A DNA stretch of 63,842 nt from an uncultured Gammaproteobacteria bacterium (GCA_964557125.1 CAZKYX010000001.1:1-63842), one strand, 5' to 3'. Positions 283 to 24,957 are shown, numbered from the stretch's first letter. The notes: generated by a model not told the origin, from the letters alone. Made by a program: numbers and translations.

Positions 283-933
283 TTACTGTGCGCAATGTGA
301 GCAGGTGGAACCGGAATAATTTCGATAGACATATGCTGTACCCTGCGAATTGCAGTATTTATCGTAGCATGACGTGCTGCTCGTGCAGTAGGTGCCACCG
401 ATAAAGGTCTCTGGAGTGCAAAGTTGTGATGGTGTTGGTGAAGGTACTGCGTATCCATTGCAGTGTGAGCAATTTGAACCCGAATAAAGTCTTCTATATG
501 TAGATGTTCCACTCGAGTTGCAATATTCGTCATAACAGCTAATTCTACTGATGCAGTATGTCCCACCCACAAATTCTCCGGAGTTACATACTTTTCGGTC
601 GCGAATATTTGGTATTGCAGTGGGTGGATTTCCAACAGGAAGTCCACTTCTCGTTGGTATTGCAGTGGGTGGATTTCCGATAGGGGTATTGTTTTCCCTT
701 GGTATTACTGTTACTGCTACGTTTGGAAAAGAAGTTCTGCTATTACTGTAAGGCGAAGTGTCTCCCCAGTTAAAATAAGCATTTTGGCGAATATCTTGTT
801 CCTGTTGAGTTAATATTGTGGTTGCCCCAATGGCTATTGCAAAAAATCCCAGAAAAAAAATTAACTTGAAGTTATGAAATAAATTACGGGATTTTTTTTG
901 CACCAAATTTTTCTTTTTAAAACTTTGTGCCAT
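283..933 (-). CDS. exported Cys-rich repeat protein with N-terminal anchor and QQEQDIRQNA box
   Basis: 216-aa ORF. N-terminal hydrophobic segment, then two copies of a Cys module (C..F.GGTYC.S..SCYD.YCNS.GT...YSGS.CSHC) and a duplicated GNPPTAIP peptide. Confidence 0.7.
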   Translation of the reverse strand: MAQSFKKKNLVQKKSRNLFHNFKLIFFLGFFAIAIGATTILTQQEQDIRQNAYFNWGDTSPYSNSRTSFPNVAVTVIPRENNTPIGNPPTAIPTRSGLPVGNPPTAIPNIRDRKVCNSGEFVGGTYCISRISCYDEYCNSSGTSTYRRLYSGSNCSHCNGYAVPSPTPSQLCTPETFIGGTYCTSSTSCYDKYCNSQGTAYVYRNYSGSTCSHCAQ

Positions 934-1113
934 ATTTTTTAATATCTTAAAGCCTAGTTTTTTTAAATAAAACTCTATTAATCAATATATTCTTACATGA
1001 AGAGAATTTGTTGTCAAGACAAAATAGCATGTTTTTCTGTTGGCGCTTCATTCTCTCAAAAGACGTCTGTATTTGTATGTGCCGATGTTAAAAAGCTTGT
1101 TAGTATTGTTCAT

Positions 1114-1158
1114 TGTCGAGCTGAGCTTTAGCTAAGCGTCTCACTTTCAAACGTCTTT
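1114..1158 (+). repeat. 45-nt hairpin element, copy 2
   Basis: Near-identical to 134..178. Located between two minus-strand genes. Confidence 0.8.
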
Positions 1159-1220
1159 TTCTCACTTTTCCACACAATAAACACTCCTAATTAAGTTTCG
1201 TGAATTTATAAACGATTGAG

Positions 1221-2063
1221 TTACCTGATTGAAATTGCAACACTCCCAAACCTGAAGTCTCCAACAATTGTCGTGGTTTTTCCACTTTCCACTGTAAATT
1301 GAGTTGTCTTTGGAGTATTTTTATATCTAGTAAAGAACGAATTATATTTAAATGAAACATAATATTTTCCGGGATTTATTGACTGACTAAGTTTTCCGTT
1401 TGATGTTTGTGCGACGACTGTTCCTGAATCAGTAAGGATTTTTATTGTTTGAGGTTCTGGTGTTGTCGAAGCATTTACAAGCCCCTGTTTTACTGGAGTT
1501 GGGGTAGCAACAGACGTTGGGGTAGCAACAGACGTTGGGGTAGCTATTGCTGTTGGGGCAGTTGTAGGAACGTAGGTCGGATATATGATTTTAGTTGGGG
1601 CTGGGGTATATGGCACATTCGTTGGGAATGTAGAACATGAAGAATGACCTGCGCACGCATCTTGTGCTAATTTAGCCAAGGTTGCAGTAGAGCTACATGA
1701 CGTGCTGCTTCCAAGCGTTGAGCCATAACCATCCTGACAGGTATAGACAACGTTTCTAAATGAGCTGTCTCCGCAATACGTATTAAATTGAACTGCGCTT
1801 AGTCCTGTTTTGCATGAAGGAGGAGAGGATGGCATCACTGTTGCTGAAGGTGTTCCAATAGTTGGTTCTGGAGGAGTTACGGGAAATCCAGATGCACGTT
1901 GCCTTGTGTCTTGAATTTGCTGTGTAAGAAAGATAGTGACGGGAAGCGCAAGCGCAATAAGTCCAAAGAAAAAAATGCGTTTGTTTCGCAAACGTGAAGG
2001 AATTTTAGCAAGTATTGCTGTTTTGATTCTATTAAATAAATTCATTGATAAAACAATTCTCAT
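1221..2063 (-). CDS. exported protein: N-terminal anchor, QQIQDTRQRAS box, Cys-rich domain, PT linker, C-terminal beta-sandwich-like domain
   Basis: 280-aa ORF. Hydrophobic segment followed by TQQIQDTRQRAS; tandem ATPTSV repeats. Start could be the internal Met at 2045. Confidence 0.7.
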   Translation of the reverse strand: MRIVLSMNLFNRIKTAILAKIPSRLRNKRIFFFGLIALALPVTIFLTQQIQDTRQRASGFPVTPPEPTIGTPSATVMPSSPPSCKTGLSAVQFNTYCGDSSFRNVVYTCQDGYGSTLGSSTSCSSTATLAKLAQDACAGHSSCSTFPTNVPYTPAPTKIIYPTYVPTTAPTAIATPTSVATPTSVATPTPVKQGLVNASTTPEPQTIKILTDSGTVVAQTSNGKLSQSINPGKYYVSFKYNSFFTRYKNTPKTTQFTVESGKTTTIVGDFRFGSVAISIR

Positions 2064-2077
2064 GTTAAGCTAATAAT

Positions 2078-3226
2078 ATGTTAAAGAATTTGTCAATGCC
2101 TTCTCTGTACGAACTCAGCATTTTGGGGCTAATTTTTTTCCTCCCGCTTGTATTTTTCTCCTCAGTTGTTCATCCTTACGAATATCCAAAATTTTTACTT
2201 CTTATTATTGGAAGCTTTTTACTATCTTGTTTTCATATTGTTATCATTTGGAAGAAAGACAAGATTTTGCATCCGTTTACAACAACTGACATCTTCATCT
2301 TACTATTTCTTTTATGGCTGCTTTTTGTCGATTGTGTTGGTTTGGATACAAAAGTGTCTTTGTTGGGGAGTGAATATAGATTTCAGGGATTTGTAACCTA
2401 TCTTGCTTTAACAACTGTATATTTTTTAATGAGATCAACGCCTATTTTAAAAAAAACTCTATCTAAATTCGCTCTCCTATCTCTTTCAATACTCACGGTT
2501 ATTACTCTTATAGATTTCTTGCGTTTACAGTTAGGCATTCTGGTTCCAAACTTTCAAGGCAGAGTGATAGGTACGATGGGAAACCCAAATTCTTTGGGAA
2601 TTCATCTCGTGCTCCTGCTTTCATTAGTTCTTTTTCTGCGCAATGGAAAGGGGAAAGGTAGGGTTGCTACCGACATGCTAATATGTGTTTGTGTTGGAAT
2701 GGCTGTCTTTATTACGGACTCGCGAAGTGCTCTTATGGGGTTTGTCTTTGTAATTATCAGCAAAGTGATATATCTTTTTTACAAAAGATTTGGAAGAAAA
2801 GCTTTGATAGTGGGAATTGGGATTGCTTTGCTGGGATTTGTTATCGCGTTTAATGTATATTCTTCAAGTACACAGAAAAGAATTTCACAGTGGGAAAGTA
2901 GATCACTTATTTGGAAGCATGCAGTACATGCGATTACAAAAAACTCATTTACAGGATATGGTCAGGAGAACTATGAATTGGTTTTTCCAAAGGACCTAAA
3001 GCTGAAAGTAGATAGTGCCCATAATTATTTATTGGAATTGGGAGTTTCTGGTGGAATTCCATTAATTCTGTTATTTCTATTTGTAATTTTTTCTGTATTG
3101 CGTCAAAAAAGGTCGTTATATCTAAAGATTTTTATTGGAACGTTTCTAATTGTTTCCTTCTTTAATCCTTTCTCAATTGCTACATTATTACTACTGTGGG
3201 GAATATTGGGTTTTACAGACAGTTAG
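2078..3226 (+). CDS. O-antigen ligase (Wzy_C)-like polytopic membrane protein
   Basis: 382-aa ORF with ~10 hydrophobic segments and the TDSRSALMGF motif region typical of the O-antigen ligase / WaaL family. Confidence 0.6.
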   Translation: MLKNLSMPSLYELSILGLIFFLPLVFFSSVVHPYEYPKFLLLIIGSFLLSCFHIVIIWKKDKILHPFTTTDIFILLFLLWLLFVDCVGLDTKVSLLGSEYRFQGFVTYLALTTVYFLMRSTPILKKTLSKFALLSLSILTVITLIDFLRLQLGILVPNFQGRVIGTMGNPNSLGIHLVLLLSLVLFLRNGKGKGRVATDMLICVCVGMAVFITDSRSALMGFVFVIISKVIYLFYKRFGRKALIVGIGIALLGFVIAFNVYSSSTQKRISQWESRSLIWKHAVHAITKNSFTGYGQENYELVFPKDLKLKVDSAHNYLLELGVSGGIPLILLFLFVIFSVLRQKRSLYLKIFIGTFLIVSFFNPFSIATLLLLWGILGFTDS

Positions 3227-3283
3227 TTAATTATCAGTTTTCTTTAAAACTATTGGTAAGATCGAAGGAAAGGGAAGTTGTTA

Positions 3284-5566
3284 CTATTTTGACCAAGTAA
3301 ATTTTGCAACAGCCTGTCCTTTATTTTCGTAATACTGAACAATAATTGTATGTACGCCTTGTGACATGTATTTCGTGAAGGTTCTTGTAGAAGCTCCCTG
3401 ATCTTTCCAACTATTGTAAACGGCCGTCCCATCTATATACACTCTCATCCCGTCGTCGTTACTTACGGTAAATCTATAGTAGCCCGATGTAAAAGACTGA
3501 TTTTTAGTCCACCTGACAGAAAACGCGTTGGAATTAATTTTTGGATCCGGTGAGTTTGCTCCCCAGTTAAAATTAATCGTACTGTCATCTCTTATGAGTG
3601 CTGGAACACCAATTAAGCTCGAATTATTATAGTATTCGCCTTTAAAGCCAAGAATTTGAACACTGGTTGGTGTAGGGGTTAGCGTTGGAATAAAAGTAGG
3701 AGTAGGGGTAGGAGAGGGTGAGCGAGTTGGAGTGGCTGTAGGAATTGGCGATGGGGTCATCGTAGCCGAAGGTGTGTTGAGGGGAATAGAGGTTGGAATA
3801 GGTGTTGAAGTGGGTAATAACGTTGGAGTTGGCGATTGCGTTGATGCTGTTGGCGTAAGAGTTGGCAGCGAATGCATGGAAGCCATAACTGCGTCAAAAG
3901 ATGATTTCTTAGTGCCGTCAGTACGTAGTATGCCAAAGGTTCCTTCACAGAGACCACTTGAAGTTGATTCATCCATGATTTCGTAGAGAATTATTAGTTT
4001 AGCTGTTGAGAGCTTGAGACTATTTACAGATTTTGTTACATAATTCTCCTGATCTGCTTCTGTGTATGTGCCTGGAAGTGTGCAAGTTCCTGTTTCTGCA
4101 ACTGCAACATCCTTTGAATAGCGTGTTTTTAAGTCGTCAACACGTGAACCTAACTTAGCAATTTCTATTAAATCTGGAGTTGGATACATATCAACTGACA
4201 ATATGTCCAGATTATCTTTTAGACTATCAAAGAACTGGTACCATTTCTGGACAGTAGCATCATTCATTGGGTAACCGCTGACGTTTGCAGTAATAAGAGC
4301 ATTTGAGTCATTTGTTTTAATAACGTTTTTAGCTATAGCTATCAGACTATTCAGATCTGACAAATATGCAGGTGAAGTTGTAGTAAGAGCTGAGTAATCT
4401 CTGAAGTGATGGGTATCGGCCTCATTAAATATTTGCCATATTTCCACTTTTCCCGTGTATCTTTTGGAAAGGTAATCATAGAACTGGTTAACAACACTTT
4501 TATAATCATCAATCGTATAATTTTTAGCGAATGCTGGTGTATTGGTAACTAGAAATACTTTTAACCCTTTGCTCCGAGCATAGTCTATCGCTGTGTCATA
4601 TATGGCAAGATTTGTATTATTCCACAGTATTGCATCTGATGAGATCCCCTGAACGCTCTGAACAGTTGATGTTCCTGCTGTAAGATCTGCTATGACAGTG
4701 GTTGTTTTATTTTCAGAAATAGATATTTGTGTTGCGGTTGGTATTTTTGGAGTTTGTCCATTCACCGAAATAAATGGGTACACATACGTGAGTGTGTAAT
4801 TTCCAGCTGGTAATGGTGTCCAGTCAACGCTCCATGTTTTTTGAAGTACTGTTTGCCCTGCTGTATCTGCGACGGTTATTGTTGCTTCAGCCGCTGGAAT
4901 TGTTTGTACTCTCAAGAGTCCCGATAATGGATTTGGCGTGATGGTTTCTGTGCCCTTTGTAAGATCGCTAACCACTACAGTAGTCTGATTTGAATATACT
5001 GTGATGTTTTGTGGTTGTGGTATTGCTACAGGTAGACCATTAATTGTATTGTGAGGATAGGTATACTGAATTGTATATTTTCCAACCGGCAGACTAATCC
5101 AGTCAACGCTCCATGATTTTTGATGTACAACTTGCCCTGAAGGGTTTTTGACAATTATTGTCGCTTCAGCTGCTGGATTTGTTTGTACTCTTAGAAGTCC
5201 AGGATTTGCTGAGGGTGTTGGAGTTGGTGTGGCTGTTGGAATTGTATTTGGAGCTTCAGCTGCTACCTCAAAATCAATAATATTAAAACGAATCCATTTT
5301 TGACCGTTTGCAGCTAGAGTGTCAACGTTAGATTTGAATGTATTGATATCAAGGTTGTTATTTGCTGCAGAAACATGCGTATTAAAGCCGAATTCTGTTC
5401 CGACGGTTCCTGATGCACGTTGTCGAAGATCCTGTCTTTGAGTGACTAAGAAGAAGGTTACCCCAATCCCTACAGCCATTAAGGCTAGAAATAAGTATGA
5501 TTTTGAATTTTTTAAATTCGTTCGAATTTTTTGATAAAGACTAGTTTCGAGAATAACTCTTACCAT
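3284..5566 (-). CDS. exported clan GH-A (GH5-like) glycoside hydrolase with two PEGA-like Ig repeats and a C-terminal PA14 domain
   Basis: IWQIFNEAD (acid/base NE) and VAVAETG (nucleophile E) motifs. Two ~95-aa LLRVQT.PAAEATI repeats. C-terminal GFKGEYYNN...YRF...DDGMRVYIDG fits PA14. TM plus [11 protein letters not shown] box. The ORF extends to GTG 5602; ATG 5566 preferred. Confidence 0.75.
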   Translation of the reverse strand: MVRVILETSLYQKIRTNLKNSKSYLFLALMAVGIGVTFFLVTQRQDLRQRASGTVGTEFGFNTHVSAANNNLDINTFKSNVDTLAANGQKWIRFNIIDFEVAAEAPNTIPTATPTPTPSANPGLLRVQTNPAAEATIIVKNPSGQVVHQKSWSVDWISLPVGKYTIQYTYPHNTINGLPVAIPQPQNITVYSNQTTVVVSDLTKGTETITPNPLSGLLRVQTIPAAEATITVADTAGQTVLQKTWSVDWTPLPAGNYTLTYVYPFISVNGQTPKIPTATQISISENKTTTVIADLTAGTSTVQSVQGISSDAILWNNTNLAIYDTAIDYARSKGLKVFLVTNTPAFAKNYTIDDYKSVVNQFYDYLSKRYTGKVEIWQIFNEADTHHFRDYSALTTTSPAYLSDLNSLIAIAKNVIKTNDSNALITANVSGYPMNDATVQKWYQFFDSLKDNLDILSVDMYPTPDLIEIAKLGSRVDDLKTRYSKDVAVAETGTCTLPGTYTEADQENYVTKSVNSLKLSTAKLIILYEIMDESTSSGLCEGTFGILRTDGTKKSSFDAVMASMHSLPTLTPTASTQSPTPTLLPTSTPIPTSIPLNTPSATMTPSPIPTATPTRSPSPTPTPTFIPTLTPTPTSVQILGFKGEYYNNSSLIGVPALIRDDSTINFNWGANSPDPKINSNAFSVRWTKNQSFTSGYYRFTVSNDDGMRVYIDGTAVYNSWKDQGASTRTFTKYMSQGVHTIIVQYYENKGQAVAKFTWSK

Positions 5567-5682
5567 GATTGATAATTTCAACGTAACACAGTAAAAGTGC
5601 ACGTGTCAATTGCTATTTGCCTCAAGATTCAATTTTTAGTAAAATAACAGTCTAGTTTAAGTTTTTACTCATGTGAAAGCAT

Positions 5683-5754
5683 GGGCGCATGGCTCAGTGG
5701 TAGAGCGCGTTCCTGATAAGAACGAGGTCCATGGTTCGATCCCATGTGCGCCCA
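5683..5754 (+). tRNA. tRNA-Ile (anticodon GAU)
   Basis: Cloverleaf by hand: acceptor GGGCGCA/TGCGCCC, anticodon loop CTGATAA, T-loop GGTTCGATCCC, discriminator A. No encoded CCA. Confidence 0.9.
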
Positions 5755-5770
5755 CATTAACCCCTACACA

Positions 5771-5800
5771 TTGACTTTGACCTCTCAAACTCACTAATAT
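5771..5800 (+). promoter_or_regulatory. sigma70-like promoter: -35 TTGACT, 18-nt spacer, -10 TAATAT, 6 nt before GTG 5807
   Basis: Hexamers read directly. Spacing implies a leaderless or near-leaderless transcript. Confidence 0.4.
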
Positions 5801-5806
5801 AATAGT

Positions 5807-7969
5807 GTGGAAAGTGAATTAAATACACAAGTTACTCTGCCCAATGACGACAAGCCATTCTGGCAAAAAATAAATAAAGGACCCAGTTTTGCGCTTATTG
5901 CACTTGCCTTACTGTTACTCATTGGTGTGGTGAGCGCTCTTGGTATTAGAACGGTTGATAAAGTAAAGAAAGAGCAGGCTGAAAAGGGAAGCGATACAGC
6001 TTTTATTGCAAACAACACCATTGTATATGGTTTTTGGGCTTCAGGTGGTTCTTTAGTTGAAGCAATTGATCTCTCAGTAAGTAAAAAGAGCGTGCTTACC
6101 ATGTTGCCAACCAATGTGAAGCACATAAAGGTGCTCGATAGTAATTCAATTTTATATATCAATGATACCGATTTAAATGATTATGGGAAAAGTTTGGTTG
6201 TGAGAAATATTTCTTCCTCAACAGATAGGATAGTAATAACCGCCAATGAGGAGATGGGAATTGATGATTATGTTATTTCCCCAAGTGGTAAATTTGCGGC
6301 TGTTTGGATGGTAAGTATCCTTGCTGAAAATGATTCATATTCGGCTGGTAAATCAAAAGTATACTCAGTTGATATTACATCAGGGGAATCAAGTCTTCTG
6401 TATGATGAAAGTTCTGCGAATGGGTTTGCAGTCAGATATCCAGTTGCAGTAACTGATAATGGAGACATATTTTTTGATAAATTCAAACCAAATTCAGGGG
6501 CTGGATGGGGATATGGTATGAGTGTGTCTAATTTCTCAGGGAGTGAAAAAAGCGATATTACATCAATGCAAAATGGAACATATAGCACGCAACCCATTGT
6601 ATCTCCAGATGGAAATACTATTGCCTTTGCTGGTTACAATGGCACCGATGGAGCAACCGTACTGAACGGTTTTCGAAAGGCTATTATTACTCCCAACACA
6701 GTTGAATATTTTAATTTGGCAACAAAAGAAAGAAAGAAAATTGATACAGGATTTGATACGGCCATATATCCAACGGTCGGTTGGGACACTGCATCTGGAA
6801 AGCTACTCTTTTCAGTTACAGAAAAAAGCGGCGACGGAATTAACAGTTATAGATATGCGCATAGTCTCAGTACCAACCAAGTTGTAAAAGTGGAAGAAAG
6901 TGAAAGCCTTTCAAATACGGGGTTTTATGCATATCTTACTGGGGGAAAAATTCTGAATGCTGAGATTACGAGGGACACATCTTCTGTTGGAAATTTGGGT
7001 TCACGATATAGTCAGGGAATAAATAAATTTACGGTTGTTGATCCGATTCTCAATAATGAAAAAGAGGTTCCAATCAATAGGTCGCCATTTCAATTTATTG
7101 CACTAAAAAGTGGTGGATACTTTCCAATTCTAAAAAACAAAACTGCAGAGGAATTGAAAGAATCTGATAGACAGCTTCAGTTACAAACGTTTGAGTTAAA
7201 GCCCAGTCTTGCACCACGACGTGAAGAAAGACAAAGCAGTCCACCATTCGTACCCCCGAGTGAAGGAGAGGAGCCACAATTGCCACAATGTAGAGAATCA
7301 ACGTATCCTGCCTGCAACCAGCTATTGGGAACGAATCATCCGGTAGGAACAGACATTGGGGACTTGGGGGACCCTGCATTTAGTGAATGCGTCTGGAGTC
7401 AGCAGCAAAAAGGAGAAGCAGGTTCTACCTGTATGGATAGTCCACTTTATTTGTATGGAAAAGAGGGACAAAGTGTAACAGTTAACATTAATACAGAAGT
7501 AAGCAACGAAAATATTCCACTTACGAATAATAGTTTTAAGGCAACACTAGAGAGCAATAGTATCCGCGTTAATGATAATTTGGTCAGCAGTGTTGCATAC
7601 GATTACGTTTCTAAAGTTAGCAGACTTCCAAAACTTGAAACAGGGTATACCGTAAAAATTTCAGAGTTACCTCTATTAATTCAAAAAATATCCAAAGAAT
7701 TTAATTTCAATCAGAAAGAAACACAGGATTTACTTTGGAGTGTTTCTGAAATAAATTCACCATATGTTTTTGTTTCTTTCTATGATCATGCAACATCTCA
7801 CGCAATTTTACCTCTCTCATTTAATCCTCAACCTGATACGTACCGAAATATTGTTTTTTACTTCAAAAAACTTTCTAAATCACCATCAGAACTTCCAGAA
7901 AAACCGGAAGTATCACCCATTGTAAGAAATGGGTTCACTGCAATAGAGATTAGTTATAGAGTTGAGTAA
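5807..7969 (+). CDS. membrane-anchored extracytoplasmic protein with TolB/WD40-like beta-propeller region
   Basis: 720-aa ORF with N-terminal TM. SPDGNTIAFAG and SPSGKFAAV blades are typical of TolB/DPP-IV N-terminal propellers. Cys-containing middle region. Confidence 0.65.
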   Translation: MESELNTQVTLPNDDKPFWQKINKGPSFALIALALLLLIGVVSALGIRTVDKVKKEQAEKGSDTAFIANNTIVYGFWASGGSLVEAIDLSVSKKSVLTMLPTNVKHIKVLDSNSILYINDTDLNDYGKSLVVRNISSSTDRIVITANEEMGIDDYVISPSGKFAAVWMVSILAENDSYSAGKSKVYSVDITSGESSLLYDESSANGFAVRYPVAVTDNGDIFFDKFKPNSGAGWGYGMSVSNFSGSEKSDITSMQNGTYSTQPIVSPDGNTIAFAGYNGTDGATVLNGFRKAIITPNTVEYFNLATKERKKIDTGFDTAIYPTVGWDTASGKLLFSVTEKSGDGINSYRYAHSLSTNQVVKVEESESLSNTGFYAYLTGGKILNAEITRDTSSVGNLGSRYSQGINKFTVVDPILNNEKEVPINRSPFQFIALKSGGYFPILKNKTAEELKESDRQLQLQTFELKPSLAPRREERQSSPPFVPPSEGEEPQLPQCRESTYPACNQLLGTNHPVGTDIGDLGDPAFSECVWSQQQKGEAGSTCMDSPLYLYGKEGQSVTVNINTEVSNENIPLTNNSFKATLESNSIRVNDNLVSSVAYDYVSKVSRLPKLETGYTVKISELPLLIQKISKEFNFNQKETQDLLWSVSEINSPYVFVSFYDHATSHAILPLSFNPQPDTYRNIVFYFKKLSKSPSELPEKPEVSPIVRNGFTAIEISYRVE

Positions 7970-8034
7970 TTTCTTCTTGTCATTTTTATTTCTCATGTGT
8001 ACAATTACGTATCAGCAGTTCGTATTTGTTTTAG

Positions 8035-8062
8035 CTACAACCTAAAACCTACAACCTAACCT
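8035..8062 (+). repeat. heptad array, C-rich orientation (CTACAACCTAAAACCTACAACCTAACCT), abutting the dcd start codon
   Basis: Period-7 AACCTNN units end exactly at ATG 8063. Confidence 0.8.
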
Positions 8063-8635
8063 ATGGTACTTTCAGACAGGGATTTAAAGGCAGCAATTAA
8101 GAAAAAGAAAATCGTTATAAAACCTTTCCCGAATTTTGAGGAACAACTTGGTTCTAACTCTATCGATTTGAGACTTGGAAATGCCTTCAGAATTTTTGAT
8201 CACAGCAAATACGCTTACATTGACCCTTTCAGAAAAGATGTTGGAGAAGAAATAACCCGAGAGGTAAAAAAGAAAAAAGGAGAACCATTTATTATTCAGC
8301 CTGGCGAATTTGTTTTGGGAACAACTGTGGAATATGTAGAAGTTCCTGATGATATGGTGGGAAGTCTTGAGGGCCGTTCTAGCATAGGAAGACTTGGAAT
8401 AATAATTCACTCAACTGCGGCTAGTATTGAATGTGGATTTCGAGGAAATATTACGCTTGAGATTGCAAATTTAGGAAAAATGCCTGTAGCTCTTTACCCA
8501 AATATGAGAATTTGCTCTATATCATTTCTGATGCTTACATCGCCAGCCGAAGTGCCATACTACAAAAAGAAAAGTGCAAAGTATTCAGGACAATTAGGTC
8601 CCGACCAGTCAAAGATACATGAGGAAATAAAATAA
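8063..8635 (+). CDS. dcd: dCTP deaminase
   Basis: 190 aa. MVLSDRDLK N-terminus, SIDLRLG and EGRSSIGRLGI motifs characteristic of Dcd / dUTPase-fold deaminases. Confidence 0.9.
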   Translation: MVLSDRDLKAAIKKKKIVIKPFPNFEEQLGSNSIDLRLGNAFRIFDHSKYAYIDPFRKDVGEEITREVKKKKGEPFIIQPGEFVLGTTVEYVEVPDDMVGSLEGRSSIGRLGIIIHSTAASIECGFRGNITLEIANLGKMPVALYPNMRICSISFLMLTSPAEVPYYKKKSAKYSGQLGPDQSKIHEEIK

Positions 8636-8780
8636 TAGGGTACAGTTAGGAAAGAACCTCAATTTTTAATTCTTAATTTTTAATTTGAAATCAAATCTAA
8701 ATATTTAATTTTTAAAATTTAAAACATTGATTAAAAATTTTAAATTTGAGCTTTAAAATTAAACTAAGCATCAGCCATTT

Positions 8781-9854
8781 TTATAGTGCCAGTAATAGTA
8801 TTCCTCCAATTATTGCAAGGAGAATTCCACCAAAGATTCCCAGTGTTTGTGCCATAGAACCGCTTGGTGCAAGTGTAGCAGTAGGCGTGTTTGTTGAAAT
8901 TGGTGTCATTGCTGTGGTTGGTGTAGCGCTCTCAGAAGCAACTGCCGTAACCGTCGGGGTGAGCGTAGCAGTTGCAGTGGGGGTAAGCGTTGCCGTTGGG
9001 ATAAGAGTGGCTGTGGGGGTTAGTGTCGGTGTAGCTGTTGGAATTGCTGTAGGAGTTGGTGATGGTGTAGGTGTTTTTGTAGGAGTTGGTGTTGGCGTTC
9101 TTGTTGGAGTAGGGGTTGGTGTGTGAGTTGGGGGAGGTGTTACAGTTGGGGTGGCGGTGGCAGCTGTTGTGACTGATGGTGTTGTTGATATGGTGGGTGT
9201 TGCCGTTGGAGCTGTTGTTACTGTGGTTGTGGGGGTAGCAGTTGGAATCTCTGTTACTGATGGGGTTGGTGTCATTGTAACTTCTGTATCTGGCGAATCA
9301 CCAAAGTCTGCTGTCCAAAACCAACTCGTGCCACTACCTTTGACCCGAGAAATACCAACGACAGCTCGAGATGATCTTTCCATTTCTTCTTTGTGTCCAA
9401 GCTTTGATGCAAGCCACGCATCAAATGCACTCTGACCAGTTCCTCCAACAACATAAGCAATGTTTTCACCTGCTGCACCAGAATATCCAAACGCTGGAAG
9501 TCTTGATTGGAGTCCGCGCCCAAGTGAATCGGTGTGGTCGAATCTGTCGTTTGTATTCATATCCTCAGACATCCACGTTGCTGCTTTAGTAAGCTTCAAG
9601 GATACCTTAAGTTTTTGCTTGCCGAGACTTTCTCTATGAGTATTTAAAATTTCCAAAAAATTCCATTCTTCTTCATCAAGCGTAATTTCCGGAGTTGGAG
9701 TAGCTGTTGGGGCAATTGTGGTCGGTGTAGCTGTAGGTGTTGGCTCACTGGCCCTTTGACGTAAATCTTGTTGTTGACGCACTAAATACACCAGAATAGG
9801 AAGCGAGATGAGAACGAGTGCAATAACAGTGTAAATAAGATATTTTTTCTTCAC
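8781..9854 (-). CDS. CAP/SCP (cysteine-rich secretory protein family) domain protein with very long PT linker and C-terminal hydrophobic tail
   Basis: 357 aa. TM plus [11 protein letters not shown] box. CAP-like core (LNTHR...[12 protein letters not shown]...AWLASKLGH). ~150 aa of TPT repeats. Ends [30 protein letters not shown]. Confidence 0.8.
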
Positions 9855-9987
9855 TCCTTATCTTACTCTGATTTAGGGTTTAGGGTAAAGTAGGGGTAGA
9901 GGGTATAGTTAACTATTGAAGAGCTGGGTATAAGAGAATGGCTTTCTACCTCAAATTTTGGTAAACTCTTTCAGTATTATGCATCGC

Positions 9988-10059
9988 GGCGCGGTGGTGA
10001 AGTGGAAACACGGAAGTCTGCAAAACTTTCATGCGAGGGTTCGATTCCCTTCCGCGCCT
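9988..10059 (+). tRNA. tRNA-Cys (anticodon GCA)
   Basis: Acceptor GGCGCGG/CCGCGCC, anticodon loop CTGCAAA, T-arm GAGGG-TTCGATT-CCCTT. Discriminator U, as expected for tRNA-Cys. Confidence 0.85.
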
Positions 10060-10168
10060 CAAGTGTTTGGCTGCAACCTAAAACCTGCAACCTAAAACCC
10101 CAGTTGTTAGTTATCTATCATCTTTCTGTAAGGCACAATTTACACCTCGTGATATACTATTCTCGATA

Positions 10169-10357
10169 ATGCCAAAAGAAAATCCATATTATACTGATTC
10201 TATAAAAAGAGAACTTGCTATTGGCGTCAAGGTAACAGGACTTCTCGCAAAGCCAGTCTTGGCAAGTCTTGCGCCTATTGCAGCTGAGCTAGTTGGGGGT
10301 AGGGTGAAAAATTGTTACTGGTATCACCAGTCACAGAAAAAAAATATATATTTATGA
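10169..10357 (+). CDS. small hypothetical protein (62 aa)
   Basis: Preceded by an extended -10 (TGATATACT). Its TGA stop overlaps the next ATG (ATGA coupling). Confidence 0.35.
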   Translation: MPKENPYYTDSIKRELAIGVKVTGLLAKPVLASLAPIAAELVGGRVKNCYWYHQSQKKNIYL

Positions 10358-10716
10358 AAGAAGAACGAGAAGAATTTAGAAAAGACGAAAGCGGCTATAA
10401 CGAATCGCAGTCTGATTTGCAGGCAGAAATTGGTGCTGGTGAGTGGCAGCGTCTCATTGAATTTCCTGCGTACCAGAATCGTTCACGGCAGGGGAGAATT
10501 ATTGCTATGTATCAAGCAGTTTCTAATCGTCTTACGCAGCTTGTTTCACTTTACTATCAATATGTTAGAAACAACCCTCGCGAAGCAACAAAGATGCTTG
10601 CAGAGCTTAAAAAACTGCGAAAACTTCAGGAATTTTTATTGAATAGTCTTACGTGGGAACAAAAAGGAGAAATGGGCCAACACGAATTGCCTGATGAATT
10701 AAAAAATATCCTCTAG
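10354..10716 (+). CDS. hypothetical helical protein (120 aa)
   Basis: ORF 10312..10716; start chosen at ATG 10354, which overlaps the upstream stop. Confidence 0.5.
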   Translation: MKEEREEFRKDESGYNESQSDLQAEIGAGEWQRLIEFPAYQNRSRQGRIIAMYQAVSNRLTQLVSLYYQYVRNNPREATKMLAELKKLRKLQEFLLNSLTWEQKGEMGQHELPDELKNIL

Positions 10717-11129
10717 CGAATACTATTCGGAATAATTTTTGAAGTAGGTGAGGCGCCGCCCAGAGGGTTCTGCTCGACGGGTGACAGAGATACGCTTGGG
10801 GATGCAGTTGGTGTATTGGTTGGTGAGAGGAATGGAGTTGGGGAAGGTATAACTTGGGTGGGGAATCTTTTGATTTCAGAGGCTCTTTGCCTATTATCCT
10901 GACTTTGATTGAGTTGTGAAATGGTGATTGGTAATACGAGCAGTGCCAAGGCTATAGCTCCAAATGGCAGTAATTTTCCTCCATTAAATTTAAATCCGCC
11001 TCCGCCTTTTTCTTCATTTTGAGACTGTTTTGGAGACTGCCCACCCGGTATTGGATTTTGAATAGTATTATTAAAGCCAATTCGTGGTGCGAGAGGTCCG
11101 TCAAAAGGAGAATTTGATTTTGGTTCCAT
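10713..11129 (-). CDS. small membrane protein with QSQDNRQRAS box and PT tail
   Basis: 138 aa. Gly-rich N-terminus, one TM, the box, then a PT-rich tail. The C-terminal PVEQNPLGGA is encoded by a REP copy. Confidence 0.55.
   Translation of the reverse strand: MEPKSNSPFDGPLAPRIGFNNTIQNPIPGGQSPKQSQNEEKGGGGFKFNGGKLLPFGAIALALLVLPITISQLNQSQDNRQRASEIKRFPTQVIPSPTPFLSPTNTPTASPSVSLSPVEQNPLGGASPTSKIIPNSIR
10752..10781 (+). repeat. GC-rich REP element (diverged copy) inside a CDS
   Basis: GGCGCCGCCCAGAGGGTTCTGCTCGACGGG. Same family as 16706, 30366 and 36315. Confidence 0.75.
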
Positions 11130-11171
11130 TGTCTATCTATTATCGATAACTTTCAATTTAAAATCAACTTA

Positions 11172-11837
11172 TTATTGTGTAGGGGTACTGGAAGTAAAAG
11201 GAACAGCAGTTGGAGCGAAGGTTTTTGAGAGCTTTATAGTAAGTGGTACTGTTTCTTTAAGAATGGACTCTTGGGTTGAAAGAGTTGTTGCAACGGATTT
11301 AGGAAGAAATGTCATCTCAGTTGTTGCCTGAACCGTAGAAGGAGCGACATTAAATGTAAGGGTGGCAATTTTACCAACCCCCGAGACTTCGGCATCTGAG
11401 AGTGAAATTCCCATCGCGTATGATATTCGCCCTTGGGCAATATCAACGGATTTTATGAGTACTTGTGATGAATTTGGGAATAGTGGAGTATTTGTTTCAC
11501 CGACAATTCCGGTTCGTGCAGGAGTTATGGTTACATTTGTTATGAGTTTTGGGTCATATGAAAGTTCTGCTTGGATTGTCGAAACAGGTTTTCCACTTGT
11601 ATCTACCATGATATCAACACTTACAAGGTTTGAAGTTGCAGACGCCATATCAAGCGTTACTGGGGAGAAGTAGATTTTGGTGGAAGGCGCAACTGTTGGG
11701 GCTACGGTTACAGTTGGTTCTCCGAGATTTTTGAGATTTAACTGACTATTTCTGCTAGATAAAGCTAAGAATACAAGCAGAGCAGTAACGACTGCAAGAA
11801 CAATGATAAGAACTGTTGTTTTTTTAGGTAAATTCAT
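11172..11837 (-). CDS. membrane-anchored cohesin-like domain protein
   Basis: 221 aa. N-terminal TM. VSVDIMVDTSGKPVSTIQAELSYDPKLI ... GVGKIATLTFNV fits the cohesin sequence pattern. Confidence 0.7.
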   Translation of the reverse strand: MNLPKKTTVLIIVLAVVTALLVFLALSSRNSQLNLKNLGEPTVTVAPTVAPSTKIYFSPVTLDMASATSNLVSVDIMVDTSGKPVSTIQAELSYDPKLITNVTITPARTGIVGETNTPLFPNSSQVLIKSVDIAQGRISYAMGISLSDAEVSGVGKIATLTFNVAPSTVQATTEMTFLPKSVATTLSTQESILKETVPLTIKLSKTFAPTAVPFTSSTPTQ

Positions 11838-11943
11838 ATTTCTTAGAATTAAGTATATAGAATAAAGAATAAAGTATTCAATACATATAAAATAAAATTC
11901 TTTTCATAATACTTAATACTTTATTCATATTTCATTATTCTAA

Positions 11944-13356
11944 TTAGTCTCCTTCAACACTTAAGAATGCATTGACGATAATTGCGTTATCAATAATATC
12001 AAATTCCCCATTATCATTGAAGTCTGCAAGAACTTTCTGTTCTGCTGTGCATGATTCTTTCCCTTGATAGCAGGCAACAAAGAGGTTGTAGTCAAGCGTA
12101 TCCATTCTGTTATTGCGATTAAGATCCCCGAGTATAAGAGTTCCTGTATTGATAACAACAGTTGGAGCACCAGCTTCTAAATAGACAATTCCAGGAACTT
12201 GCTTCCATAGTGAATTGTCAAACCTGATTTTTACAAGCACGTTTCCTGTAGCGTTAATTGGAACACTTATCACACGATTGTAAGCAAATAATTCACTGCT
12301 GTATGTTGCGTTTCCACTCACTGTATATACAGGCTGGTCACTTCCCTGTTTGAATATTGCTATATCAGTTGCAAATCTGCTTGGATGCTTTGGATCCGGA
12401 TTATTGTTGTTATTTGATGTTTTTTCTCCAATGCCCGGTAGTTTGGTGACTAGAGATATCGAGGCCTGTCCTGGAATAGGTGTAGGTGTTGCCGTTGGTG
12501 TTTTTGTTGGAGTTGGGCTAGAGAAGACCGTTGGGGTAGGCGTATTGCTTGGGGTCGGACTTATATAAGCCGTTGGTGTAGGCGTATTTGAAGGAGATGG
12601 TGTTGGGGTAATGGTTGGAATTACAGTTGGGGTAATACTTGGGAAAATTGTAGGTGTCGTGCCAAGTGTTACACAGTAACCGGCATCATTTCCTGTAACA
12701 ACTTGTCTACAAGTTTGGGAGGCGCATTCTGCATCTCTATAGCATTGACATCCATTCACCATATTTACTCCACTTCTACAATCAGGTGTCGGTGTCAACT
12801 GACCGTCAATTGTTATGTTCGTTTCAATAGTAGATGTATTAGCAATAGGTACATATTCCTTATATCCCGTTGCGGTGAATAGAACGTGCAATGTAACTTT
12901 TCCTATTCCTTGTTTTTTTGCTATCAAAATGAGCTTTCCAAGACTAACGGTATCTCCTGTTACTGGAGTTATTGTTGTGTTAGTGCCGATAAATGTGACG
13001 CTGCCAATCTTATTCACGCCCGGAGAAGCGATAGGGAGAAGAGTAGCTTGAGAGAAATCTACATATTCAAACAAGCCATCTGAAATTGCTTTGCTAAAGT
13101 CAATAGTTCCAGATACTGCTCCCAAATCATTACTCCCTGCTTTTACTTTGATATTCACGGCTATTTGATCTCCAACTTTCACAACAGAGGAAGAGGGTTC
13201 AAGCGTTACTGTAACAGGAGGTGCGCTACTTGCACGCGAGCGAGACTCTTGGCTCCTTTGAACTTGATACAGGGTTACGGCGATGGCACCAAGTAGAACA
13301 AAAGCCCCAATTATGAGGAAAATAAGTCGTTTGCCTTGAGTTAAATTTTGCAACAT
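11944..13356 (-). CDS. cohesin-domain plus dockerin-domain protein
   Basis: 470 aa. TM plus QRSQESRSRAS box. Cohesin-like VKVGDQIAVNIKVKAGSNDLGAVSGTIDF. Cys knot, PT linker. C-terminal dockerin pair GDLNRNNRMDTLDYNLF and ADFNDNGEFDIIDNAIIVNAF. Confidence 0.8.
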   Translation of the reverse strand: MLQNLTQGKRLIFLIIGAFVLLGAIAVTLYQVQRSQESRSRASSAPPVTVTLEPSSSVVKVGDQIAVNIKVKAGSNDLGAVSGTIDFSKAISDGLFEYVDFSQATLLPIASPGVNKIGSVTFIGTNTTITPVTGDTVSLGKLILIAKKQGIGKVTLHVLFTATGYKEYVPIANTSTIETNITIDGQLTPTPDCRSGVNMVNGCQCYRDAECASQTCRQVVTGNDAGYCVTLGTTPTIFPSITPTVIPTITPTPSPSNTPTPTAYISPTPSNTPTPTVFSSPTPTKTPTATPTPIPGQASISLVTKLPGIGEKTSNNNNNPDPKHPSRFATDIAIFKQGSDQPVYTVSGNATYSSELFAYNRVISVPINATGNVLVKIRFDNSLWKQVPGIVYLEAGAPTVVINTGTLILGDLNRNNRMDTLDYNLFVACYQGKESCTAEQKVLADFNDNGEFDIIDNAIIVNAFLSVEGD

Positions 13357-13357
13357 A

Positions 13358-14350
13358 TTATCTTAATTTTGCTAAAAACATATCCTTCCATCCTTGAAAG
13401 TCGCGAAGATCAATGAGACTATCTGGGTGATAACAGTCTGATTTAAGTCCACCTGAGCCAAGCATTTCACCTACCCATATGCCATAGTCCAAAAGGTCTC
13501 CGGTTATTCCATCGAGATTTGGATCGCAGACTGCTGGGGTAGGTGTTGCGGTTGCAAGAATTGGGGTCGGAGTATTCTGCGGTGTTGCAGTTGGTGTACT
13601 GGAAGGAGTAGGGAGGGGGCAAATTTTATGTGAGGAGCAGACATTTTGAAGATTAAATTGCCAAGTTCTTTCAGATTCGCATCTAAAACTCGCTGTTTTT
13701 GTAACAACAAAGCCGTCGTTACAAGTTACGGTAGCTGCTTTTGCATCATAACTTGGAACGCAGCCTGTTTTGTCATATTTTATAGATTTAATTCCGCTAG
13801 ACGAGCAGGTCGTGCCATTTGTATCTGTTGTATTTGGGAGAGGAGTAGGAGTTGCAGCGGAAGTCGGTGTAGGACCGTTTGTTGTTGGAGTTGGTAGGTT
13901 AATAACATTGCATGTCTTAGGGGTTTGTATACCTAAAGTTCCGCAAATTTGAATATTTGGGGTTTTGATACATGTGCCTCCTTGTGTCGTTGCAATTGTG
14001 CCTGTCGGACAAGTACAGCCAAGAATGGTTGATTCTGGAAGACCAGAGCAGCATACAATTTGCTGAGCAGAATCAGGGCTTTGCCCTTGATATGCACACT
14101 CGGCTCTGTATGGATGAGTCCCTGTGCAGTAGGGTTGTGTTGTGCCAATGGGACCTGGACCAAGACAATAACCCGTCTGCTGACCCATGGTGCTCGAGCT
14201 TACTGGTTGCTGCACGCAACATCTTGTGTCACCTCCGCAAGCCCCAGTTGTTGTACAGGTCTGTGCCTGAGCTGAAACATAACTGGTTTTGGTTAGGAAA
14301 ATCGAAAAGAGTAGTGCGAATACAAAAAATATTTTTTTCAATAAAGACAT
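13358..14350 (-). CDS. secreted Cys-rich protein with C-terminal dockerin-like repeats
   Basis: 330 aa. Cleavable signal peptide (SYVSAQAQ), more than 30 Cys. C-terminal DPNLDGITGDLLDYGIW and HPDSLIDLRDFQGW. Stop lies 1 nt from the next start. Confidence 0.75.
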   Translation of the reverse strand: MSLLKKIFFVFALLFSIFLTKTSYVSAQAQTCTTTGACGGDTRCCVQQPVSSSTMGQQTGYCLGPGPIGTTQPYCTGTHPYRAECAYQGQSPDSAQQIVCCSGLPESTILGCTCPTGTIATTQGGTCIKTPNIQICGTLGIQTPKTCNVINLPTPTTNGPTPTSAATPTPLPNTTDTNGTTCSSSGIKSIKYDKTGCVPSYDAKAATVTCNDGFVVTKTASFRCESERTWQFNLQNVCSSHKICPLPTPSSTPTATPQNTPTPILATATPTPAVCDPNLDGITGDLLDYGIWVGEMLGSGGLKSDCYHPDSLIDLRDFQGWKDMFLAKLR

Positions 14351-18806: not shown

Positions 18807-19130
18807 TCAAATAGGACTTCTTGTCGGAGTGGGGGTAGGGGCAACTTCTCCTGATTCCTCAAGTTTTAAATCAGTAATTTGAAGATTTTTTTCATTTGAT
18901 GTATTTGTCGTATTGTTGGGAGCCGCGTAATGAATTTTGCTATCAACAATATCTGACTTTGGAGGAGAGAATATGCCAGACCACACAAGAACACTAAGCA
19001 TAAGTACTACAACAAAAATAACTTCAATCATGGAGAAGCCTTTTTCATTCCGCAGAGCGGAATGAAAAGAATTAAGTATTAAGAAGTAAGTATTATGGTG
19101 AAGTTTTGAATTCTGTTTTAATTTTTTCAC
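18807..19130 (-). CDS. type IV prepilin-like protein (class III signal, G|FSMIE)
   Basis: 107 aa. KGFSMIEVIFVVVLMLSVLV has Gly-1, Phe+1 and Glu+5. GTG start, with an unusually long 31-aa leader. Confidence 0.6.
   Translation of the reverse strand: MKKLKQNSKLHHNTYFLILNSFHSALRNEKGFSMIEVIFVVVLMLSVLVWSGIFSPPKSDIVDSKIHYAAPNNTTNTSNEKNLQITDLKLEESGEVAPTPTPTRSPI
19042..19068. repeat. perfect 12-bp palindrome with a 3-nt loop, inside the prepilin leader-coding region
   Basis: TTTTCATTCCGC-AGA-GCGGAATGAAAA read directly. Confidence 0.85.
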
Positions 19131-19173: not shown

Positions 19174-19833
19174 TTAGGGTGAAAGTTTTACGTCAAGGGT
19201 TGCTTGGGAGAGTTTTAATTTTGTTTGTATTCCATCCTTAAGAGTATATACATTTGAATTTTGAAGGTCGTACAAAAGCTGTGTAGTCACCGAAGTGTTG
19301 AATGAAACAGGGGTGAAGGTAAGTTGTGCTATTCTTCCTTTACCCTTTATTGGTTTTGCGCCATCTGGCAATTTAAAAGTTATCGTTACATTAGATGGAT
19401 TGTACATAATGCTTAAAAATTCTGTCTCAATAGGGAGAAGTCCCGTGTCTCCTGTAACGGGTGACACTCTAATGTTTTTAACCTGATTCAAGTCGTATTT
19501 AAGAATAATAGTACCTCCAGAAATGCCTTCGTTTTCAAGTGTTTGGATATTGAGGTCAACGGTCACAGGTTGATTTTCCTTTGTAACCAAATTCAGTACT
19601 GAGAATCCAAGCGAAACTTTTACGTGTTGCGGATTATCAATATTATCAACCAAAGGGGCAATTTTGGTTTTTATGGAGGTCTTGCCTTTAAATCCAAACG
19701 TTAAAAGAAGAAAGGCTATAAGAATTGCAGCGACAACAAGACTAATAGCTATAAGGAGTTTTTTATTAAGTCCCTTTTTTTCAGGAACTTGTGGAGCTTC
19801 TTGTTCTGGTTGTTGGGGCAGATTGTTTTCCAT
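19174..19833 (-). CDS. membrane-anchored cohesin-like domain protein
   Basis: 219 aa. N-terminal TM. VTVDLNIQTLENEGISGGTIILKYDLNQV ... GKGRIAQLTFTPV follows the cohesin pattern. Confidence 0.65.
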   Translation of the reverse strand: MENNLPQQPEQEAPQVPEKKGLNKKLLIAISLVVAAILIAFLLLTFGFKGKTSIKTKIAPLVDNIDNPQHVKVSLGFSVLNLVTKENQPVTVDLNIQTLENEGISGGTIILKYDLNQVKNIRVSPVTGDTGLLPIETEFLSIMYNPSNVTITFKLPDGAKPIKGKGRIAQLTFTPVSFNTSVTTQLLYDLQNSNVYTLKDGIQTKLKLSQATLDVKLSP

Positions 19834-19836: not shown

Positions 19837-21105
19837 TTATATTGACTGGCAGAATGCTTCGGTTGCGCCAGAAGGTTTTATACAGTATCCACCACACCCT
19901 GAGCATTGGTTATTTGTACCAGTTACTGTATTTTTTGAGGTATCGCAAAGTCTTCCTGAAACTTGGCAAGAAGAACCAGCTCCACTTTGATTGGCAATTG
20001 GCAATTGGCAACACGTGTAGCCGGTTTTGTCTTTCCCTCCGCTATAAAAAAGAGAGCAAGATTCTGAAGCTAGCGCATCGGGATTTTTGACAGCTCCCCC
20101 TGAGCAAGTTGTTCCAGAAGAGCAAATTTGACTCACAGTACCACTGGAAGTTTGTATAGAGTCATTGCATGTGCCACTTGTTGCAATTGGTGTTGGGGAA
20201 GTTATCGGTGCGGGAGTTCCTGTTGTAACCGGTGCAATGCATGTATTTGCGCTTATGCTCCAAACAAATCCATTTCGGCAGCACACTCCAGTAGCACATG
20301 ACGCTGAAAGTGAGCTACAAGACTGTGCACAGTAATTTCCGCTAACACACTGCCACGGTCCTTGAGAAGGTACACAAGCCTTACCTTCTCCGATTGGAGT
20401 GTATGGAGTGGGAGTTGGAGTTTTGGTGGGGGTGGGTGAGCCACTTACAACAGCTGTTGGACATTTATAAAAATATGGCTGAAGACCCCCTGATGCGCCT
20501 ACACAGTATGAATTCTTAAAATCTGAGGCAGTACTTTTTACCCACTCAGCAGAGGCTTTTGAGCATGGAGGAGTCGTGCCAGCTGGGACAGGAAGCATTT
20601 TGGAGGTATCAGGACCATCATCACCGCAGTACCCAATCTCACCTGTAGCAGGTGTCGGGGATGCACCTGATGCTCCCGGTGATGGGGTCGTTGTTGTTAC
20701 TGGCCCAACAACTGGATTCAGAATTTCAATTGTTTGATTGTATGTATAGCTTGTGTCTGATGCTCCCGGTTCTATAATATCTGACTGGTGTGTATGGACT
20801 ATGGATCCGTTTTCACTCACCATAATTTTTATCCAGAACGAGGTAGGCTTTGTATTTAGTTCGACAGAAGCCCCGTTAGCAAAATTGGAAGAAAGAGGTG
20901 TATTCGTTGCCGCGTCCATAATGGTTACTATTACAGAGGGGTATGTTTTTGCAACACCACTTGAGGTGGTTTTTGCCTTAACGGTAATAGTATAGGCACC
21001 TTGTGCGAAAGCTTGAAAATTTTGTGAAATGAGCAGAGCAATGACAGTGAAAGAGAGAATGAGAATAAGGGACAAGGAGCGAACTAATTTCATGGTAGTA
21101 ATCAT
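19837..21105 (-). CDS. secreted Cys-rich protein
   Basis: 422 aa. Signal peptide (QAFAQG), N-terminal beta-rich region, PT linkers, several Cys modules including GYCGDD...YFYKC. Stop is 3 nt from the next start. Confidence 0.7.
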   Translation of the reverse strand: MITTMKLVRSLSLILILSFTVIALLISQNFQAFAQGAYTITVKAKTTSSGVAKTYPSVIVTIMDAATNTPLSSNFANGASVELNTKPTSFWIKIMVSENGSIVHTHQSDIIEPGASDTSYTYNQTIEILNPVVGPVTTTTPSPGASGASPTPATGEIGYCGDDGPDTSKMLPVPAGTTPPCSKASAEWVKSTASDFKNSYCVGASGGLQPYFYKCPTAVVSGSPTPTKTPTPTPYTPIGEGKACVPSQGPWQCVSGNYCAQSCSSLSASCATGVCCRNGFVWSISANTCIAPVTTGTPAPITSPTPIATSGTCNDSIQTSSGTVSQICSSGTTCSGGAVKNPDALASESCSLFYSGGKDKTGYTCCQLPIANQSGAGSSCQVSGRLCDTSKNTVTGTNNQCSGCGGYCIKPSGATEAFCQSI

Positions 21106-23406: not shown

Positions 23407-23416
23407 ATTTATAAAT

Positions 23417-24761: not shown

Positions 24762-24957
24762 CAAATCATATTATTTTAATTCGTTACATTGTCTTGTTGC
24801 AATTTTCTTTAGGTTACAGCCGCAAGAAAATAGCAAATCATATTATTTTAATTCGTTACATTGTCTTGTTGCAATTTTCTTTAGGTTACAGCCGCAAGAA
24901 AATAGCAAATCATATTATTTTAATTCGTTACATTGTCTTGTTGCAATTTTCTTATAG
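24762..24957. repeat. 72-bp tandem repeat, 2 perfect copies plus a 47-nt third copy
   Basis: Copies start at 24762, 24834 and 24906. Copies 1 and 2 are identical. Copy 3 is the 3' end (last ~13 codons plus stop) of the vWA gene. Confidence 0.95.

Follow-up and report, generated by a model that had tools for sequence, protein, structure and literature searches.

Six leader-bearing genes in one window

The DNA described here is a stretch of 63,842 nucleotides (GCA_964557125.1 CAZKYX010000001.1:1-63842; hereafter the window) recorded as coming from an uncultured Gammaproteobacteria bacterium, and our subject is an N-terminal leader shared by six of its genes. The six lie between positions 283 and 13,356, all on the - strand, and encode proteins in which a hydrophobic segment is followed directly by a Gln- and Arg-rich peptide box that closes on an invariant Ala (A0). 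These boxes had been pointed out in an earlier note, and when the region is translated all six are present as described there. A strict form of the box, [QES][DE]xRx[RNK]A, has exactly six matches in a six-frame translation of the whole window, each directly after an N-terminal hydrophobic segment, compared with a chance expectation of 0.39 (maximum 3) in 200 nucleotide shuffles read in six frames and of 0.19 in residue shuffles of the called open reading frames.

The six proteins display a variety of architectures. Box protein 1 (283..933; 216 amino acids) contains Cys-rich repeats, and its leader module, numbered from -32 to +1 around A0 (775..876), ends in FAIAIGATTILTQQEQDIRQNA followed by Y, with G at -16 and the box QQEQDIRQNA. 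Box protein 2 (1221..2063; 280 amino acids) has a Pro/Thr-rich linker and a C-terminal Ig-like module, and its leader (1890..1991) ends in LALPVTIFLTQQIQDTRQRA followed by S, with P at -16 and T at -14. Box protein 3 (3284..5602), whose gene may start at 5602 (GTG) instead of 5566 (ATG), has a glycoside-hydrolase-like (GH53/GH5) domain and a PA14 domain; its leader (5411..5512) ends in VGIGVTFFLVTQRQDLRQRA followed by S, and box-bearing orthologues are found in the related loci L012 and L014. Box protein 4 (8781..9854) carries a CAP domain, a Pro/Thr-rich linker and a C-terminal membrane helix, with the leader at 9747..9848, again followed by S, and a C-terminal tail (8784..8876) in which an LPXTG-like motif and the membrane helix are present without a basic tail. 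Box protein 5 (10713..11129; 138 amino acids) consists of a cytoplasmic N-terminal peptide, the helix, the box and a Pro/Thr-rich tail; its leader (10878..10979) ends in LLVLPITISQLNQSQDNRQRA followed by S, and it has an orthologue in L014. Box protein 6 (11944..13356) is composed of a cohesin-fold N-domain, a Pro/Thr-rich linker, an Ig-like domain and a C-terminal dockerin, and its leader (13228..13329), ending in LGAIAVTLYQVQRSQESRSRA followed by S, is kept in the homologues P0002-P0044. Proteins 3, 4 and 6 have named domains, and none is recognisable in proteins 1 (without a Pfam match), 2 and 5. The description of the six as otherwise unrelated holds for the passengers downstream of the box in essentially every case, the exception being a weak Ig-like module common to proteins 2 and 3 (E = 2e-4).

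As had been claimed, codons differ between the copies, the same codon being used at only 2-5 of the 5-12 residues shared by each pair; Arg is encoded by CGC, AGG, CGA, CGT and AGA, and Ser by TCT, TCA and AGT. Conservation is therefore at the peptide level, and a DNA repeat or recombination cassette is ruled out. The box is also missing, again as claimed, from other exported proteins of the window, namely three proteins (13358..14350, 19837-21105 and 21787-23634) that are large, secreted and Cys-rich and have short AXA signal peptides of the classical type, and at least seven plain membrane-anchored proteins, encoded at 11172-11837, 19174-19833, 21151-21780, 24915-25778, 5807-7969, 60256-61374 and 61450-62541. 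The first of the Cys-rich proteins (- strand; signal peptide …SYVSA followed by QAQ) is in the same gene cluster as the box genes. With classical AXA signals standing beside box leaders in the window, there are two clearly different classes of N-terminal signal in one genome.

Anatomy and distribution of the leader module

The box terminates a longer conserved unit, a gap-free module of about 33 residues with the layout K-K/R, a 21-residue hydrophobic segment containing [IL]-P-x-T, and Q-Q-Q-Q-[DE]-[ILV]-R-[QS]-R-A-[SA]. The idea of a post-anchor box as the signal unit is thus sound in that the box is conserved as peptide, is N-terminal and lies behind a membrane helix, and is under-described in that the helix carries [IL]-P-x-T in register with the box. 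Position frequencies were taken from 178 non-redundant examples aligned on A0. The alignment has zero indels and a fixed register, which all six window copies share, position -16 being P, G or A in each. The n-region has K-32 (63%) and K/R-31 (80%) with a mean net charge of +2.2, and the hydrophobic stretch from -30 to -10 has 0.18 charged residues on average; within it are A/S-18, I/L-17, P-16 (91%), L/I/V-15, T-14 (78%), V/I-13 and F/Y/I-12, and the segment might be divided by the Pro at -16 into 13 and 6 residues. The box begins with Q-9, Q/K-8, Q-7, Q-6 (98%), D/E-5 (99%) and I/L/T/V-4, and ends with R-3 (98%), Q/S-2 (94%), R-1 (87%), A0 (100%) and S/A+1 (76%). Information content reaches up to 4 bits per position across about 20 positions and is at background level from +2 onward. 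Pro and K/R are each found at +1 in 0 of the 178, and Cys at none of the positions from -3 to +2 (0/178), with Pro at 6-19% from +2 to +10. In the best 150 of the 2,341 profile matches described below, the module starts at the protein N-terminus, between residues 1 and 92.

The in-membrane [IL]-P-x-T (-17 to -14; for example window 1934-1945 and 9791-9802) resembles the LPXT of sortase signals as well as the rhomboid-type recognition pattern of a hydrophobic P4, small P1 and hydrophobic P2', and either likeness may be coincidence. On a 443-kb Joint Genome Institute contig of 35.5% G+C (L127), four tandem polysaccharide-lyase or beta-helix proteins carry a box in a lineage variant, K-Q-x-L-D-N-R-[ST]-x-A, with Leu instead of Q-6 and the register of P-16, D-5, R-3 and A0 maintained.

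The module is genuine, widespread and lineage-specific, an N-terminal signal module of the ultra-small, uncultured bacteria of the Microgenomates group, in the Candidate Phyla Radiation (CPR). A 40-column profile built from 28 sequences was used in an exhaustive search of 1.84 billion protein cluster representatives (50%-identity clusters) and matches 2,341 of them at E <= 1e-3 and 36 at E <= 1e-10; an earlier six-sequence profile, used in a word-indexed search with E-values scaled to 5.8 billion sequences, gave one match (E = 0.12). A metagenome scan gave at least 22 confirmed box loci. Few carriers have names, and these are Candidatus Levybacteria, Woesebacteria, Daviesbacteria, 'Microgenomates group' and 'Patescibacteria group', and the module is conserved over loci of 35-48% G+C, in several candidate phyla and on unrelated passengers. 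The GTDB species-representative genomes were scanned with QQQDxRQRA as a DNA pattern, and among the matches listed about 100 of the 108 translated are chance occurrences in non-coding frames of high-G+C genomes. The real matches, at least about ten, are preceded by a helix, come from sequences of 38-48% G+C and have I, L or T at the variable position; those among the matches listed belong to Levyibacteriota, a 'Patescibacteria group' record and metagenome-assembled genomes (MAGs) labelled 'uncultured Gammaproteobacteria'. Six MAGs with the last label (L004, L092, L012, L085, L014 and L080) encode typical box proteins at 38-48% G+C. L014 is syntenic with the window, and its protein 5 orthologue is 51% identical. 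The Gammaproteobacteria labels of the box-carrying MAGs are probably wrong. None of the viral contigs that match the peptide pattern encodes the module.

Two further expectations of the earlier note, conservation in orthologues and absence from cytoplasmic proteins, are borne out by these data. The module is present in homologues of protein 6 even where relatedness is limited to the dockerin part, and the other matches listed from the GTDB scan are in frames without an upstream hydrophobic segment, mostly in high-G+C genomes. Passenger domains in 133 carriers include cohesin (23), dockerin (21), PKD, Big, SdrD_B, LamG, fn3 and VWA; the 25 most-matched of 33 Pfam families are all extracellular in type, and none is of polytopic-membrane or cytoplasmic type. 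GH26, polysaccharide lyase family 8 and pectate-lyase-like enzymes are further passengers in related loci.

Possible recognition, cleavage or retention of the leader

The reading that we favour, tentatively and at somewhat less than an even chance, is that of a stereotyped, lineage-specific export signal that has the box as its outer end and includes its own recognition or cleavage site; the leader probably marks a distinct export or release route for Microgenomatia surface proteins. With a basic n-region ahead of a very hydrophobic 21-residue segment, the leader is built like a Sec-type signal, and it would drive targeting through Sec and the signal recognition particle with the N-terminus inside the cell. 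The juxtamembrane Q/R box and the in-membrane [IL]-P-x-T would then be read by one specific membrane-proximal partner, most likely a signal peptidase of non-canonical specificity, which might be a LepB that has co-evolved or a paralogue dedicated to the task. This enzyme would cut after the invariant Ala, between RQRA and S/A, and the passenger, once freed, would be secreted, dock through cohesin and dockerin, or be anchored by its C-terminus.

Several features argue for recognition, and some of these for cleavage in particular. According to the positive-inside rule, positive charges are retained on the cytoplasmic side of the membrane; two conserved Arg residues just outside it contravene the rule, which points to selection for recognition and not for insertion. 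Together with the in-membrane [IL]-P-x-T, this translocated Arg pair suggests a specific partner rather than a generic signal, whether the leader is cleaved or retained. Conservation ends sharply at +1, and an invariant A0 with neither Pro nor K/R at the following position fits a P1/P1' pair. A C-terminal [LI]P[PVA]TG-like or PGPGD-like motif with a membrane helix is present in 24 of 146 carriers and in window protein 4, and to our knowledge all known sortase substrates have their N-terminal signal removed; the tails are not decisive, as some N-terminal helices without the box co-occur with such tails too. Dockerin-bearing box proteins adjoin a box-free membrane-anchored cohesin protein in at least nine loci, and because docking to an anchored partner is sensible only if the cargo is freed, the pairing favours release. 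Lyases and hydrolases begin right behind the box with no spacer, and box-free homologues of the dockerin family in other lineages have ordinary short signal peptides (P0018, P0030, P0036, P0045-47).

A number of observations weigh against cleavage at this site. Type I signal peptidases follow the von Heijne -3/-1 rule, with small neutral residues at both positions; a cut after A0 would place Gln (81%) or Ser (13%) at -3 and Arg at -2 and -4, so that the rule is broken in most carriers. The hydrophobic segment, at 21 residues, has the full length of a membrane helix, and the presumed site is 10 residues past it, which is typical of uncleaved signal anchors; short AXA signal peptides coexist in the same genomes. 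A PrsA/SurA_N-like foldase family (about 285-302 amino acids; L126 159-1028, P0218-P0237, P0176) carries the module in every close orthologue, and a plain membrane helix takes its place in P0240, the most distant one; in a single-membrane cell a foldase is expected to remain anchored. Between protein 5 and its L014 orthologue, conservation covers the cytoplasmic peptide, helix and box and is poor in the exported tail, which is odd for a leader that is discarded, and N-terminal extensions in 15 of the 178 carriers place A0 at residue 57-126. An AlphaFold2 model of protein 6, built from a 21-sequence alignment, has residues 3-39 as one helix that continues through the box, at low confidence (predicted local distance difference test below 50 for residues 34-41); the first strand of the cohesin-fold domain begins only about 5 residues past A0 in the same model. 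Finally, no peptidase or transferase, the kinds of partner named in the earlier note, co-localises with the box in about 390 kb of related loci, and no S26 peptidase motif is present there.

Much of this would be accommodated if the module were an uncleaved type II signal anchor that stays in the membrane, with [IL]-P-x-T and the helical Q/R box docking surface proteins to a common partner, to each other through a Gln zipper, or to a zone of the surface, in the manner of a YSIRK motif serving as a permanent anchor. We regard this as a serious alternative, if on the unlikely side. It agrees with the conserved residues inside a segment of that length, with Gln and Arg residues unsuited to signal peptidase I, with the constant presence of the module in the PrsA-like foldases beside the plain helix of their distant orthologue, with the restriction of protein 5 conservation to the leader side, with the long Pro-rich cytoplasmic extensions of some carriers and with the helix and box being modelled as one continuous helix. 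It is at odds with the carriers that have LPXTG-like C-terminal anchors, which would be tethered at both ends, and with the linker-less polysaccharide lyases and GH26 enzymes, which would sit under the cell wall, away from their polymeric substrates; dockerin cargo would need no separate anchored cohesin partner, other families in the same genomes keep plain helix anchors, so that a box is unnecessary for anchoring as such, and this reading does not explain why conservation stops abruptly at +1 or why Pro is missing there. An anchor-like helix could be reconciled with cargo that needs release if an extracellular or wall-associated Arg-specific protease cut within R-x-R|A after anchoring, the box being a site of regulated shedding. 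The near-invariant R-3 (98%) and R-1 (87%) ahead of an invariant small residue would suit such an enzyme, and the site, about 10 residues outside the membrane, could be reached by a soluble protease; no candidate protease is encoded near box genes in the related loci, however, and a simple dibasic-type site explains neither Q-6, D/E-5 nor the in-membrane conservation, and we consider shedding improbable.

Another reading, that this is an ordinary Sec signal cut by ordinary signal peptidase I, its uniformity stemming from common descent and from shuffling of a leader cassette among paralogous genes, also seems to us a poor prospect. The n-h-c layout fits, as do the location at the N-terminus and the Ala and Ser/Ala found at -1 and +1, and tandem clusters of box genes suggest duplication, but synonymous sites are scrambled where the peptide is kept, the module is conserved at 35-48% G+C through several candidate phyla and on unrelated passengers, its information content of up to 4 bits per position over about 20 positions is far above that of ordinary signal peptides, the -3 residue is non-canonical, and classical signal peptides coexist in the same loci. 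A bolder reading, which we consider rather unlikely, is that the module is the tag of a dedicated N-terminal sorting system found only in Microgenomatia, with [IL]-P-x-T and the box read by a putative peptidase or an N-terminal counterpart of the sortases and exosortases that would process or route the whole surface proteome, including adhesins, cohesin-dockerin assemblies and polysaccharide-degrading enzymes.

Relation to catalogued signals, genomic context and implications

The module could not be matched to any named N-terminal signal in the earlier note, and this stands: no Pfam-A (2025) or NCBIfam (June 2026) model lies over the N-terminus in the eight window proteins, the 133 carriers or isolated N-terminal peptides searched at E <= 10. 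Full-text literature searches with peptide strings, and for CPR or Microgenomates signal peptides and CPR signal peptidases or sortases, found no description of the motif. The positive n-region, N-terminal position, Ala at -1 in 100% and lack of Pro at +1 (0/178) are features of a classical Sec signal, but the -3 position of most carriers (Gln in 81%, Ser in 13%) departs from that class, and the usual h-region (about 7-15 residues) and c-region (3-7) are not matched by a 21-residue segment with its presumed site 10 residues further on. The single N-terminal helix of about 20 residues with cytoplasmic positive charge matches the anatomy of a type II signal anchor.

Other signal classes were rejected. 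A Tat signal is not indicated, the n-region having K-K/R and not R-R before a strongly hydrophobic h-region, with no Tat model among the reported matches; type IV prepilin (class III) signals are excluded, as no box protein matches N_methyl (PF07963). The Pam pilus system of CPR bacteria is likewise not supported, only 4 of the 133 carriers matching the NCBIfam PamR model, and those weakly; no Pam pilin appears in PDB sequence or fold searches, and the protein 6 N-domain has a cohesin fold. In the Pam-pilus preprint (10.64898/2026.03.03.709456), a term search brings up SignalP-predicted signal peptides in generic mentions only, and nothing on cleavage.

Lipoprotein signals (lipobox L-x-x-C, with Lgt and Lsp) offer a parallel in that a short motif closing the hydrophobic region diverts a subset of Sec substrates to a processing enzyme of their own while classical signals coexist; the box differs in being polar and charged and beyond the hydrophobic segment, and the class is rejected for want of the invariant +1 Cys (Cys 0/178 at -3 to +2). 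The YSIRK-G/S signals of staphylococci and streptococci are similar in being a lineage-restricted motif within the N-terminal signal of many unrelated surface proteins, whose carriers often have a C-terminal LPXTG signal too. The YSIRK motif specifies the place or manner of secretion and not protein function. It is situated at the n/h boundary ahead of normal AXA cleavage, whereas the motif here occupies the outer half of the helix and a 10-residue polar box, and the sequences are unrelated; neither TIGR01168 nor PF04650 is among the reported matches for the eight window proteins, the 25 top families of the 133 carriers or the peptides. SipW, which serves the TasA/camelysin class, provides a precedent for a special signal class with its own signal-peptidase paralogue, but sipW is in the tasA operon and no peptidase gene adjoins a box gene in the related loci; TIGR04088 is not among the reported matches, and the roughly 390 kb have no S26 motifs. 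The C-terminal tripartite signals (LPXTG/sortase, PEP-CTERM/exosortase and PGF-CTERM/archaeosortase) are a mirror image, with a motif, helix and basic cluster on unrelated surface proteins of one lineage, but depend on a C-terminal acyl intermediate between enzyme and cargo, and an N-terminal signal cannot work in this way. The PEXEL motif of Plasmodium (RxLxE/Q/D, cut by plasmepsin V) is also polar and charged, is a fixed short distance past an N-terminal hydrophobic signal and has a dedicated protease; being eukaryotic, acting in the endoplasmic reticulum and having another motif with no evolutionary link, it is a functional analogy only.

The box genes number 61 in the approximately 390 kb of related loci and are often in tandem. 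Recurrent box-free neighbours are dCTP deaminase (11 loci), thymidylate kinase (6) and a membrane-anchored cohesin protein of 200-220 amino acids (9), the last being without the box in at least nine loci. In the window the order is protein 6, the box-free cohesin anchor (11172..11837, - strand; the syntenic partner of protein 6), protein 5 and, further along, dcd (8063-8635). This run of a cohesin-fold/dockerin box protein, a box-free cohesin anchor and a small box protein, with dcd and/or tmk nearby, is conserved in at least nine Microgenomatia loci (window 8063-13356, L014, L012, L123, L126, L129, L130, L138 and L145). A non-covalent surface chain could arise where a protein with both cohesin and dockerin adjoins an anchored cohesin. 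The family of the small protein 5 has a conserved cytoplasmic peptide, F-x-GPLAPxIGxNxxxQNPIPGG (window 10713-11129; L014 6005-6370), and may belong to, or regulate, the putative system by which the box is read.

About 16% of box proteins end in a [LI]P[PVA]TG-, PGPGD- or APSG-like motif followed by a Gly-rich membrane helix, as in window 8784-8876, P0039, P0079, P0110 and P0152. The basic tail is mostly missing from these C-terminal motifs (in the same 24 of 146 carriers and protein 4), and the tails are like a sortase sorting signal whose best score with TIGR01167, 13.8 bits, falls short of the cut-off of 15.9 by a small margin.

Proteases seen in the window are limited to RseP, of the M50 type (27392-28492), and a polytopic HExxH protein of no assigned class (45555-46226). 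The latter is a 223-residue membrane protein without a Pfam match in which HExxH (LIHELAHATM) is inside a helix, and is perhaps an intramembrane metalloprotease not yet characterised. Between box genes 2 and 3 (2078-3226) is the gene for a polytopic membrane protein of the Wzy_C (O-antigen-ligase-like) family; this family includes protein O-glycosyltransferases, and we note beside it the long Pro/Thr-rich linkers of the box proteins. A type IV pilin-like gene with the prepilin motif KGFSMIEV (N_methyl E = 2e-4) is at 18807-19130, and pilin-like genes also flank dockerin/cohesin genes in L123. GC skew is positive in 14 of 15 4-kb windows over positions 1-60000, with the cumulative skew climbing steadily; strand composition disparity has been described in a complete Microgenomates genome (PMC7143001).

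The Microgenomatia are a large uncultured part of the CPR, with a lifestyle of host or surface attachment and polymer degradation that depends on surface proteins. With one leader recognisable on at least 2,341 protein clusters, this surface and secreted proteome can be identified from sequence alone, and the leader is an obvious choice for a new Pfam or NCBIfam signal model. Because standard predictors rest on rules from which both the 21-residue helix and the Gln at -3 depart, carriers may be called as plain membrane anchors. These results point towards a specific partner, for processing or for docking, which is expected to co-vary with the leader across genomes; if cleavage between RQRA and S is true, the leader would represent a new class of signal-peptide cleavage site and a peptidase specificity that breaks the -3/-1 rule.

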